From Spirochaetia bacterium (GTDB taxonomy: Bacteria; Spirochaetota; Spirochaetia; DSM-16054; Sediminispirochaetaceae), in contig JAXHMY010000007.1 in the NCBI GenBank assembly GCA_034520965.1, positions 64,001 through 128,000 of the forward strand: 64,000 bases of DNA. Direction: 5' to 3'. Shown here one piece after another: positions 45,001 through 48,000 of this stretch. Position numbers: made by a program. Numbering within the stretch: position 1 is the stretch's first letter; every line of letters starts with the position of its first letter.

Positions 45001-48000
45001 ATCCATTTCAATAGTACGCACGGTGTAGGTGTTGGTGTATTTCATTCTATCTCCTTACTTTTTTATAGCTGCCTTCGCAACACTTATGGTAGGTGGAATT
45101 GTAGAGAGATTCCCCGTTTTTGAAAAGTCCGGCTTTGGCTGTACCAGAGACCGCCGGAGAAGCAGTTTCAGCGATTCTAAGAATAGCTGAAACTGTTTGC
45201 CTTTCCGGTGCAAGATTACTAATTTTGAATGATAGGAGGAATCTAATGAACACGAGTAAAATAGTAAAGCAAATTATTCTGGTATTGTTTCTGGTCGCTC
45301 TTGGGGCGTGTGCGGCAGAATCGGGAAATATAGCCGAAAAAAATATGGAAGACAGCACTTCAGAGAGTGCAGATTATAAGGATCCGGAGGCACTTGCACG
45401 GTTAATTGAAGAGGGGGAGACGGAGCATATTGTGGTGGATGTGCGGACTCCTGCAGAATATGCCGACGGGCATATTCCTTCGGCAATAAATATTCCCGTC
45501 AGCGAAATTGGAGGACAGCCGCCCTCAGTTCCAAAGGACAGTTTGGTGGTGGTATATTGCCGCAGCGGAGCCCGTTCAAGCCGTGCTGCCGAAAGTTTGC
45601 AATCTCTGGGCTACACAAGGGTAGTGGATTTTGGGGGTATCTCTCGCTGGGATGGAGAGACAGTAACTGGGGAGTGATGGAGTATGCATGAACTGGGAAT
45701 TACCCATGAGATTTTGGAGATAGTCCTTCGGTATGCACGGCGGCACCGGGTGACACAGGTAAGCAAGGTTCAGCTCGAAATTGGAGAGCTCAGTGATCTT
45801 GAACAGGAGTGGATCCAGCACTATTTTGATGCTATCAGCCGCGGAAGCGTGGCTGAAGGGGCCAGGATCGAAGTAAAAAAACTGCCGTGTCGCTTTTTCT
45901 GTCGTGAGTGTGGAAACGAGTTTGTTGCAACTTTAACAAACGATGAGCCGCTTATATGCTACGGATGTGGATCGGAGGCGGTAGAGATGATTTCGGGGTC
46001 CGAGTATACTGTAAAGAGTATGGAGGCAACATGAGGGAAGTAAGACTTATACAGATTGAGGAAGATATTCAGGCCGATAACCGTCTAGAGGCGGCGAAGG
46101 TACGCAGCCGCCTGGCGGAAGCGGGAACCTTTATGCTGAATCTGATGTCCTCGCCGGGTTCAGGGAAAACCAGCCTAATTTTGAGGACTATAGAAGCTGT
46201 GCAGTCCATGAGGACTCCGGCAATAGGAATGGCGGTTATAGAGGCGGATATGGACTCTCAGGTGGATGCCGAGACTATTATCGATGCCGGGGTTCCAGCG
46301 GTGCAGCTGCGAACCGGCGGCTTTTGTCATGTGGACTCTTATATGGTGGCAAAAACCCTTCCGAGCCTCGATTTAGAGCCCACCGACCTGCTTATTCTGG
46401 AAAATGTGGGAAACCTCATTTGTCCCGCCCAGTCGGATACCGGGGCCAATGCTAATGTCATGATATTGAGTGTTCCCGAGGGGGATGATAAACCCCTCAA
46501 GTATCCTGTGATGTTTCGAGAGTGCGAGGCGCTGGTGGTGAACAAGGCCGATTACCTGCAGATGGGGGATTTTGATATGGACAGCCTCCGTCGGCGGGCA
46601 AAAAAGCTGAACCCGGAGATTGAAATATTTGAAGTGTCCTGCAAAACCGGTGCCGGTGTGCAGCAGTGGGCGGAGTGGCTGCTTGAGAGGATCGGCAGAT
46701 AAGGCTCTCTTTTCAAACCCGCATACCTAAACCGGCTTTAATTAACAGGCCGGTTGCCCGCAGAAAGCCGAAACGGCCGTACAGCATCCTGACATACATT
46801 TCCATTGCACTTCCCGGAGGGGCTTGGTGCTTTTTGTGTGCCCGCAGCGTGATGGCCCCTGAGGGGCAGGCTCCAACACAAAGTCCGCAGCCGATACAGC
46901 GTTCCGGCGCTACCATTGCTTTGCCTTTGGTGCTTTTGGAGCTGCTTGTAAGAGAGAGGGCATCCATGGGACAGCGGGGCACACAGAGCCCGCAGCCGAT
47001 GCATGCAGCCGGGTCGATACGGGCGGAGTAGTTTGACTGCAGGAACTTCCCGGGGTTGGGCAGCTTTTTGGCCCGTGAGAGGATGGCACAGCAGCAGCTG
47101 CAGCAGCAGCAGATGAACACCGGTTGTCTGGTGTTCTGGGCCTGCAGTACCAGGCCTTCAGCTTCAGCCTGCTGTAAATAGTCCAGGGTCTCTTGCTTGC
47201 TCAGCTGCGGGCCTCGCTGCTCCTTGATGACCTGGGTGGCGGCGCTTCCGAGGGCCAAACAGGTTTGCTTCAGATTGGTCTGTCGGCACTGCTGTCCCAA
47301 AAGCTCACGCCCCTGCCGGCAGACACAGTTTTGTAGGGCAAAGGGGCCGGGGGAGAGTTCAATGACCCGCCGAATGCTGTCGTAGTGACTGACCGCGCGG
47401 TCGGGGAGGATCTGCTCGTTGATGGGGATGGTGCGCATTTGTCGCGGCTGCTCGCGTAAGAACTCATGCATAAAGGTCGAGTTCATATAGGCTTCAGCCT
47501 CCTGTTCGAAGCCGCGGGTAAGCCGGTCTACCTGAAACTCGTACAGCCCCACTGCAAAGGGAAGCTTCCCGTACACCCGGACAGGACGGCCCCGTTTTTT
47601 TACCAGGGCACTATTGACGGCCTTTTTCTCTGCCAGGTTTTCCAGCAACCCTTGAACGCTAGAGAGGGGCAGGCGGTAGCCGGTACGGCTCAGCCGCCGG
47701 TGGATTTTGCGGGCCGGCTCGGGGAGCATACTTAGGCAAAGGGCAATTCTAGCCTCCTCCTCGGTATAAAAGCGTTTGAGAATATCTATTTCTATGCCCG
47801 ACTCGGACCGGGGGAATGCGACGGGCATTACGTCGAGGTGGGCTTGCAGTGTCCGGTATAGCTGCTCGGTGGTTTTCATAAACAGGTTTAGTGTAATAGC
47901 TGCCCACCGGAGTGTCTACTGCAGGGGGATGGGCAGTTAGACTGGATCGTTGCCCGGCTGCTTTTGAACGGGGCCACAGAGCTGCCAAAGAGCATCTGTA

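Follow-up and report, generated by a model that had tools for sequence, protein, structure and literature searches.

A hypA-hypB pair adjoining the gene of a stand-alone Cys-rich Fe-S protein in a Spirochaetia bacterium: a candidate nickel chaperone pair and its putative client

The DNA analysed (the window, a stretch of 64,000 nucleotides at C7:64001-128000) belongs to the 3.35-Mb genome of an anaerobic Spirochaetia bacterium; the genome is 86% complete. Within it, hypA and hypB are followed, on the opposite strand, by a gene specifying a stand-alone Cys-rich Fe-S protein (g02878; hereafter the CRD protein). The genes, their overall span and their convergent layout, as given in the genome-wide survey's note, were all reproduced (Table 1). 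The junction sequence shows hypA and hypB to overlap by ATGA, while hypB and the CRD gene converge, with 10 bp separating their stops. The rhodanese gene 5′ of hypA was considered a passenger and not a conserved part of the unit, since only four of nine close loci have it in that position; perR-dps was likewise rejected when close loci were compared. The hairpin and U-run 3′ of dps likely separates perR-dps from the CRD gene and, together with the sigma-70-like site, gives a weak hint that the CRD gene is transcribed alone, from its own promoter. RNA-library contigs from relatives (∼90% identical; two runs of one study) span hypA, hypB and part of the CRD gene, although contigs cannot show transcription.

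Table 1. Positions in the window of the hyp genes, the CRD gene and its domains, and nearby features
Feature	Position	Strand	Basis or remark
Rhodanese-domain lipoprotein	45246..45677	+	PF00581; ends 6 bp before hypA
hypA, 116 aa	45684..46034	+	PF01155 (E 1.7e-30); invariant columns in 65 relatives; tree; motifs
hypB, 223-aa GTPase	46031..46702	+	TIGR00073; alignment; junction sequence
CRD gene (g02878), 388 aa; proposed nickel client	46713..47879	-	
2x[4Fe-4S] ferredoxin domain, CRD residues 283-347	46839..47033	-	PF12838 + PF00037
Cys core, CRD residues 111-282	47034..47549	-	Conservation over 156 domains; no Pfam match here
Winged-helix-like subdomain, CRD residues ~10-110	47550..47852	-	VIA-align
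Sigma-70-like site	47890..47918	-	11 bp before CRD start; 9/12 consensus match only
Hairpin + U-run after dps	48000..48044	-	-19.7 kcal/mol, z -1.9

The product of hypA scored 105.7 bits against PF01155 (cut-off 28.9), as a HypA metallochaperone, and 83.3 against TIGR00100, just below the cut-off of 88.1. It has the M1-H2-E3 Ni site, two CxxC motifs of the Zn type (73, 92) and, as a subfamily motif, D38-x4-W43-x-Q45-x-Y47-F48. HypB, with 234.9 bits against TIGR00073 (cut-off 121.2), belongs among the HypB GTPases; it shows the P-loop, C99-H100, C131 and NKAD motifs and is of the short type, the N-terminal metal tail being absent. The pair resembles the HypA/HypB of [NiFe]-hydrogenase and Helicobacter pylori urease maturation in its M-H-E Ni site, Zn-binding CxxC pairs, GTPase motifs and C-H...C metal site, but differs in that both proteins fall in separate clades and in that hypCDEF, a large subunit and urease were not found in the genome. 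Searches of this 86% complete genome found no NiFe large subunit, HypD, urease gamma or LarC, and tblastn found no HypC, HypE, HypF or Ech-type subunit; of a [NiFe]-hydrogenase maturation system, therefore, neither the large subunit nor HypCDEF was detected. This agrees with the earlier statement that the genome has no NiFe hydrogenase, urease or CODH gene, its prismane match being a split, hcp-like gene that, judged from its N-terminus, was also rejected as a nickel client. The LarA cofactor depends on LarC; a LarA-like gene, a single weak match in a genome where no LarC was found, was set aside too.

The structure model of the CRD protein has a pLDDT of 92 and a pTM of 0.87 (the value previously given was 0.85), and, as noted before, no clear solved match emerged. 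When the whole model was compared with known structures, matches were limited to the ferredoxin and winged-helix parts; for the Cys core, VIA (best Z 3.5) and Foldseek (best E 0.43) gave no clear match to CODH/ACS, double-cubane or other solved Ni/Fe-S folds. These poor matches do not demonstrate a new fold. CODH and ACS use CooC/AcsF-type chaperones rather than HypAB, and neither they nor double-cubane proteins match the CRD protein in sequence. The ESM Atlas returned only unnamed or Fer4-labelled clusters, and Pfam matches were confined to residues 286-350, with none over the Cys core. The ferredoxin cysteines are C293/296/299/303 and C328/331/334/338. For the winged-helix-like part the best VIA-align match (Fur; Z 6.8, rmsd 2.6, 82 residues aligned) was tied with rows of the MarR, PadR and TFE types, a Z value that is only middling.

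Conservation in the Cys core was assessed over 156 near-complete domains, 63 of 219 having been dropped for gaps; only three IsrA rows were kept. The core comprises G111, E114, C185, C187, C198, C207, C257, C259 and C264, with C260, C262 and C263 variable. The list of invariant cysteines in the genome-wide survey's note stood in part: C185, C187, C207, C257 and C259 are kept in 156/156 domains, but C260 (150/156) and C263 (148/156) are not invariant; G111 (156/156) and E114 (155/156) were added to the list. C264 is found in 155/156, C198 in 149/156 and C262 in 124/156. The family is large (1928 clusters at E ≤ 1e-20; 1968 clusters, at 50% identity, at E ≤ 0.001), and other members carry an aldo/keto reductase or methyltransferase domain as a fusion partner.

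By sequence, the CRD protein is homologous to the front end of IsrA, a putative isoprene reductase. The genome itself has three genes of this family: that of the window, one on C1 (958707-959996) encoding a 429-aa paralogue with no hyp neighbours, and one on C9 encoding an 899-aa IsrA-type protein (g03464). The earlier figure of 28% identity to residues 34-310 of the latter was obtained again (82/290). The CRD protein shares C185, C187, C198, C207, C257, C259, C264, G111 and E114 with the IsrA clade-9 oxidoreductases, so that what is common to both is two CxC pairs (C185-x-C187 and C257-x-C259) plus C198, C207, C264 and E114. It differs from these ∼900-aa proteins in lacking the GltD/NfnB-type FAD/NAD(P)H module, the alignment stopping at residue 310 of the IsrA-type protein, and in having a contiguous ferredoxin domain; the window HypA also falls in a different clade. 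Since the first half of the CRD ferredoxin domain aligns with IsrA-type residues 288-310 and the second with 828-854, IsrA appears to be the same protein with a flavin module inserted in the ferredoxin loop. The IsrA-type gene (C9:141731-144430) has its own chaperone pair, in the order DUF5692-hypB-isrA-hypA. The second hypB had been described as following this gene; on the coding strand it precedes it, and what follows is a second hypA that had been missed.

Among 16 genomes of the same family, HypB and a CRD orthologue of at least 60% identity occur in the same 8, as had been reported; the adjacency, previously put at 7/8, is in fact 8/8, since the CRD gene of G008 falls on two contigs, with hypB next to its 3′ half. 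All 8 also have HypA alongside. The three genes are directly convergent in seven of these relatives, with 1.6 kb intervening in the eighth, and at L140, L142 and L165, the more distant of the close loci, the triplet is accompanied by none of six tested window flank genes. A full-length IsrA search gave no match over the IsrA front end in any of the 16 genomes. The claim that the 8 relatives have no NiFe hydrogenase held for matches above the cut-off, but G004 and G012 have PF00374 matches below it. Across the 16 genomes, a NiFe large subunit exceeding the cut-off was found in G003 alone, which has its own hydrogenase cluster, retains just the first ∼55 codons of a CRD orthologue and has no HypB over the cut-off. 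Complex-I-like subunits of G004, G006 and G012 were rejected as clients: they lack the C-terminal CxxC and are absent from G000, G007 and G010.

The pairing of HypA/HypB with a stand-alone Cys-rich protein holds well beyond these 8 kin genomes. A profile of CRD-adjacent HypAs retrieved 175 loci; the best 80, dominated by Smithella-like genomes, were retained. At 51 of these 80 a stand-alone CRD gene lay within 6 kb, and none of the best 80 had IsrA, hydrogenase or hypCDEF genes; as a control, the same detector flagged hydrogenase at 12/80 HypB-first metagenome loci. Without the 8 closest loci, a CRD neighbour was still present at 43/72 (38 directly adjacent), compared with the 2-4% expected by chance. 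The 51 layouts comprised 17 convergent, 13 co-directional with the CRD gene downstream, 6 co-directional with it upstream, 1 divergent and 14 further off; since 19/51 were co-directional, the convergent layout of the window is no objection to the pairing. Such adjacency is also seen in records with the titles Gemmatimonadota, Chloroflexota, Bacteroidota, Syntrophomonadaceae and Smithella/Syntrophaceae. At the 29 HypA loci that had no CRD neighbour, a CRD gene was found elsewhere in 27 of the genomes, the two misses being assemblies of 1.6-1.7 Mb, and no known Ni enzyme recurred among the 78 of 121 listed neighbours that were scanned. A search begun from CRD genes found hypB, with or without hypA, adjoining them at 5/93 distant loci, many of whose fetched flanks were short; these five were titled Longimicrobiales, Desulfohalobiaceae, Spirochaetes, Syntrophomonadaceae and Dehalococcoidia. 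A NiFe large subunit was present in 30 of 50 genomes with CRD-linked hyp genes or a HypA of the window type. At least two HypAs were found in 24 of these 30, and in 16 the additional HypA lay no more than 2 kb from the hydrogenase; of the 20 genomes lacking hydrogenase, 19 had a single HypA.

A draw of 300 unselected genomes of the phylum (at least 90% complete) contained 72 with a CRD domain, 103 with HypB and 84 with HypD. HypB was present in 71/72 domain-positive versus 32/228 domain-negative genomes, and, in the 216 HypD-negative genomes, in 14/15 versus 12/201. Kin are not independent in this draw; still, the same 6/9 genomes of one genus and the same 2/34 of one family carry both. HypD was also found in 57/72 CRD genomes. 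The 26 HypD-negative genomes with HypB provided 27 hypB loci, of which 13 had an IsrA-type neighbour, 2 a stand-alone CRD gene and 12 neither; the phylum draw therefore lends more weight to the domain in general as client than to its stand-alone form.

Trees were built with FastTree with no formal root test, and their sampling is biased towards the queries. In the HypA tree (139 sequences), a CRD-type clade (63 CRD-near and 31 unassigned sequences) had a support of 0.93 and an IsrA-type clade (20 plus 6) one of 0.997, with hydrogenase-type sequences outside both. The window HypA thus defines a subfamily tied to the stand-alone CRD protein, which is new here. The motif D-x4-W-x-Q-x-YF occurred in 61/63 CRD-near, 0/20 IsrA-near and 0/8 hydrogenase-near HypAs; the motif was part of the search pattern, so these figures are in part circular. 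In the HypB tree (173 sequences), one clade (0.96) took in all 67 CRD-near and all 23 IsrA-near sequences and excluded the 12 hydrogenase-near ones. The nesting of IsrA-near sequences within this clade hints at, but does not prove, a stand-alone client having come first; some rows of the IsrA subclade labelled 'CRD-near' probably represent IsrA genes truncated where a contig ends. In the tree of CRD proteins, the hyp-adjacent members are scattered.

The idea of a Ni site of this kind has already been published for IsrA, and the window system is a variant of that known but unproven system. The sections of PMC10134865 (Kronen 2023) dealing with the isr operon in Acetobacterium wieringae ISORED-2 describe isrA, hypA1, hypB, a '4Fe-4S ferredoxin' (VUZ27135.1) and hypA2. 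The ferredoxin is a 350-aa stand-alone IsrA homologue, the first ∼270 aa of which align with the IsrA front end and have no domain assigned, followed by a C-terminal 4Fe-4S part; a Cys6 site with two CxC motifs was proposed as the Ni site of IsrA. The same sections report that no association with HypA/HypB was found for the ferredoxin, so that IsrA was named as the target, a view repeated in the relevant parts of bioRxiv 10.64898/2026.02.25.708027 and 10.64898/2026.02.19.706888. The window CRD protein fits the published description of VUZ27135.1 (ENOG4105DQ9), a comparison made by description and via the genome's own IsrA-type protein. The two loci are alike in having HypA and a short HypB and no hydrogenase. 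The window locus differs in that no isrA lies there, the genes are convergent, the 8 relatives have no IsrA at all, and it is the stand-alone protein that sits with hypAB. The present linkage data contradict the statement of no association as worded in those sections of PMC10134865. According to the locus description in bioRxiv 10.64898/2026.02.19.706888, Pelotomaculum schinkii keeps isrA but lacks the second HypA and the ferredoxin, a joint absence that fits a HypA2-ferredoxin pair. A literature search, with most subscription journals outside its scope, brought up no paper that treats the stand-alone protein as a client and none demonstrating the proposed Ni site of IsrA.

What was observed at and around this locus is the linkage, a dedicated HypA subfamily, a conserved set of ligands and two ferredoxin clusters. 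The reading we prefer, to which we give a probability of roughly 60%, is that hypA, hypB and the CRD gene would form a three-gene unit made up of a dedicated chaperone pair and its client. That the CRD protein is a client of HypA/HypB appears likely; that the metal it receives is Ni is probable. In established Hyp chemistry, as outlined in PMC10134865, the HypB GTPase passes Ni2+ to HypA, which delivers it to the client. By the same route HypB would load HypA with Ni2+, and HypA, perhaps recognising the CRD protein through the helix bearing D-x4-W-x-Q-x-YF, would hand it on. The Ni would then enter a mixed Ni-Fe-S site formed by C185/C187/C198/C207/C257/C259/C264, perhaps with E114, and the C-terminal 2x[4Fe-4S] domain might supply low-potential electrons from a separate ferredoxin-type donor. 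Going by the analogy with IsrA, the protein could be a reductase, most plausibly acting on the C=C bonds of a hydrophobic substrate, an assignment we offer only tentatively; its gene neighbours give no clue to the substrate. The broader proposal, to which we would give slightly less than even odds, is that the CRD family is an unrecognised and widespread class of ferredoxin-driven Ni-Fe-S enzymes of anaerobes with its own HypA subfamily, the stand-alone form being the ancestral catalytic unit and IsrA a derivative, by insertion of the flavin module, with a HypA clade to itself; within the isr operon, HypA2 would serve the 'ferredoxin' and HypA1 IsrA.

An alternative, which we regard as unlikely, is that the Cys core holds an iron-only cluster of the double-cubane or P-cluster-like type, with HypAB serving only some members, or another metal or assembly step, and Ni being optional or absent. 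The relevant section of PMC10134865 itself likens the IsrA site to P and double-cubane sites; a Cys-rich site connected to [4Fe-4S] clusters is a feature that CODH (C-cluster), ACS (A-cluster) and double-cubane proteins have in common with the CRD protein. Hyp genes are not close to most CRD genes, and the earlier caveat about a third paralogue proved real and wider than stated: its 430-aa class (14 sequences, one clade) has the same Cys/Glu set, has no member beside hyp genes, and occurs in genomes lacking HypB (none over the cut-off in 5/5 tested). The 430-aa class also counts against our preferred reading, as do the following results: among 50 CRD genomes with no adjacent hyp genes, a HypA of at least 118 bits on the window-type profile was found in 8, and 8 others showed none in that search; five re-checked genomes, including hosts of the nearest non-spirochaete homologues, had HypB in 5/5 and a generic HypA in 4/5, and one genome (G332) has a CRD gene and no HypB. 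Given the 430-aa class, the few window-type HypAs and the hosts with generic hypAB, dependence on this HypA/HypB pair is not universal in the CRD family. Against an iron-only cluster stand the M-H-E nickel site kept by HypA, the C99/H100/C131 kept by HypB, and the retention of HypB in 14 of the 15 HypD-negative CRD genomes. Orphan hypAB has other explanations too: some ∼10 HypD-negative genomes have hypAB with no CRD gene nearby, and a CRD-profile search of five of them gave no match in four and weak partial matches in one.

The lack of a reductant-binding module in the CRD protein, and the co-induction of the stand-alone isr copy with IsrA and the chaperones (expression data in PMC10134865), would also suit a maturation scaffold or carrier that accepts Ni from HypA and assembles a cluster destined for a different enzyme. 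This we consider improbable, since searches for a downstream Ni enzyme found none in the window genome and none common to the 8 relatives, IsrA carries this domain joined to a flavin module, the up to 10 CRD matches per genome fit substrate diversification, and the described Pelotomaculum locus keeps isrA with neither the stand-alone protein nor a second HypA. Equally improbable is a metal- or redox-sensing transcription regulator combining a winged helix with a HypA-loaded Ni/Fe-S sensor. The alignment of residues 10-110 with winged helices of the Fur, MarR, PadR and TFE types, the many paralogues and their often monocistronic genes agree with it, but Z values of this size are common to many unrelated proteins, the same subdomain is present in the flavoprotein IsrA, the fusions to aldo/keto reductase and methyltransferase domains point elsewhere, and the ∼2^10-fold induction given for the isr copy in PMC10134865 is enzyme-like. 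Finally, the hyp genes might serve a known client (the genome's own IsrA-type protein, or an unassembled hydrogenase), with the adjacency inherited by chance, as the 86% completeness, the presence of an IsrA-type gene, the convergent layout and the non-independence of kin would allow, but this is very improbable given that the IsrA-type gene is accompanied by a hypB of its own and by a hypA of another clade, that full IsrA occurs in 0/16 relatives, that the adjacency recurs across the five groups of records named above, and that hydrogenase genes occur at 0/80 HypA-first loci (best 80 of 175).

To our knowledge, nickel enzymes make up no more than a handful of classes. If HypA, HypB and the CRD protein do constitute a chaperone-client unit, the nickel question comes down to one protein of 388 aa and its two chaperones, which lend themselves to co-expression and metal analysis. 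On that reading, many orphan hypAB pairs of syntrophs, spirochaetes and other anaerobes are not to be taken as hydrogenase markers, and genes labelled '4Fe-4S binding protein' or 'RnfB', of which a genome may hold up to 10 matches, may be catalytic. The D-x4-W-x-Q-x-YF motif offers a predictor, from sequence, of the client of a HypA. In Smithella-type loci, a second HypA lies directly beside another CRD gene.

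Genome G159 has hypA-hypB directly 3′ of an Ech-like operon, the large subunit of which bears both CxxC motifs; despite this arrangement, a search of that genome returned no match for HypD. Related genomes, from families f39 and f46, likewise carry hypAB but lack both HypD and the Cys-rich (CRD) protein. These genomes constitute an additional class of orphan hypAB.

Two further arrangements of these genes were recorded. In G069, hypB is adjoined by a gene for a HypA lacking the zinc-finger part, and at eight loci (L024, L247, L249, L254, L260, L261, L266 and L313) two hypB genes lie in tandem, several of these pairs being adjoined by IsrA-type genes, which encode CRD-family flavoproteins.

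The perR-like/dps pair upstream of the window CRD gene is retained in the closest loci only. Elsewhere, CRD proteins occur in fusions, and in G003 the orthologue is reduced to its first ∼55 codons, followed by unrelated sequence, which reflects either gene decay or mis-assembly.

Coordinates of the features discussed (G000 denotes the window's own genome)
Feature	Coordinates	Remark
perR-like and archaeal-type dps genes	window 48060-49191	same strand as CRD gene
FecCD-type ABC metal transporter	L001:15517-18086 (G000:C9)	adjoins AraC regulator of IsrA-type locus
CRD protein, 430-aa class	L308:5873-8143	fused to aldo/keto reductase
CRD protein	L109:5932-7737	fused to methyltransferase domain
Truncated CRD orthologue	L296:6814-7374 (G003:C23)	
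HypA, 82 aa	L299:1250-1498 (G069)	
Ech-like operon, hypA-hypB	L316:3274-9453 (G159:C20)	
hcp-like prismane gene	L298:6230-7859 (G000:C3:462229-463858)	two overlapping ORFs, different frames
LarA-like gene	L297:7486-8751 (G000:C1:817485-818750)	in sugar-acid cluster

The split of the hcp-like prismane gene is due to a frameshift or to an assembly error. The genome with the LarA-like gene gave no match for LarC when searched. In three relatives (L353-L356), complex-I-like large subunits carry the N-terminal CxxC only, and GltD-like genes adjoin them.
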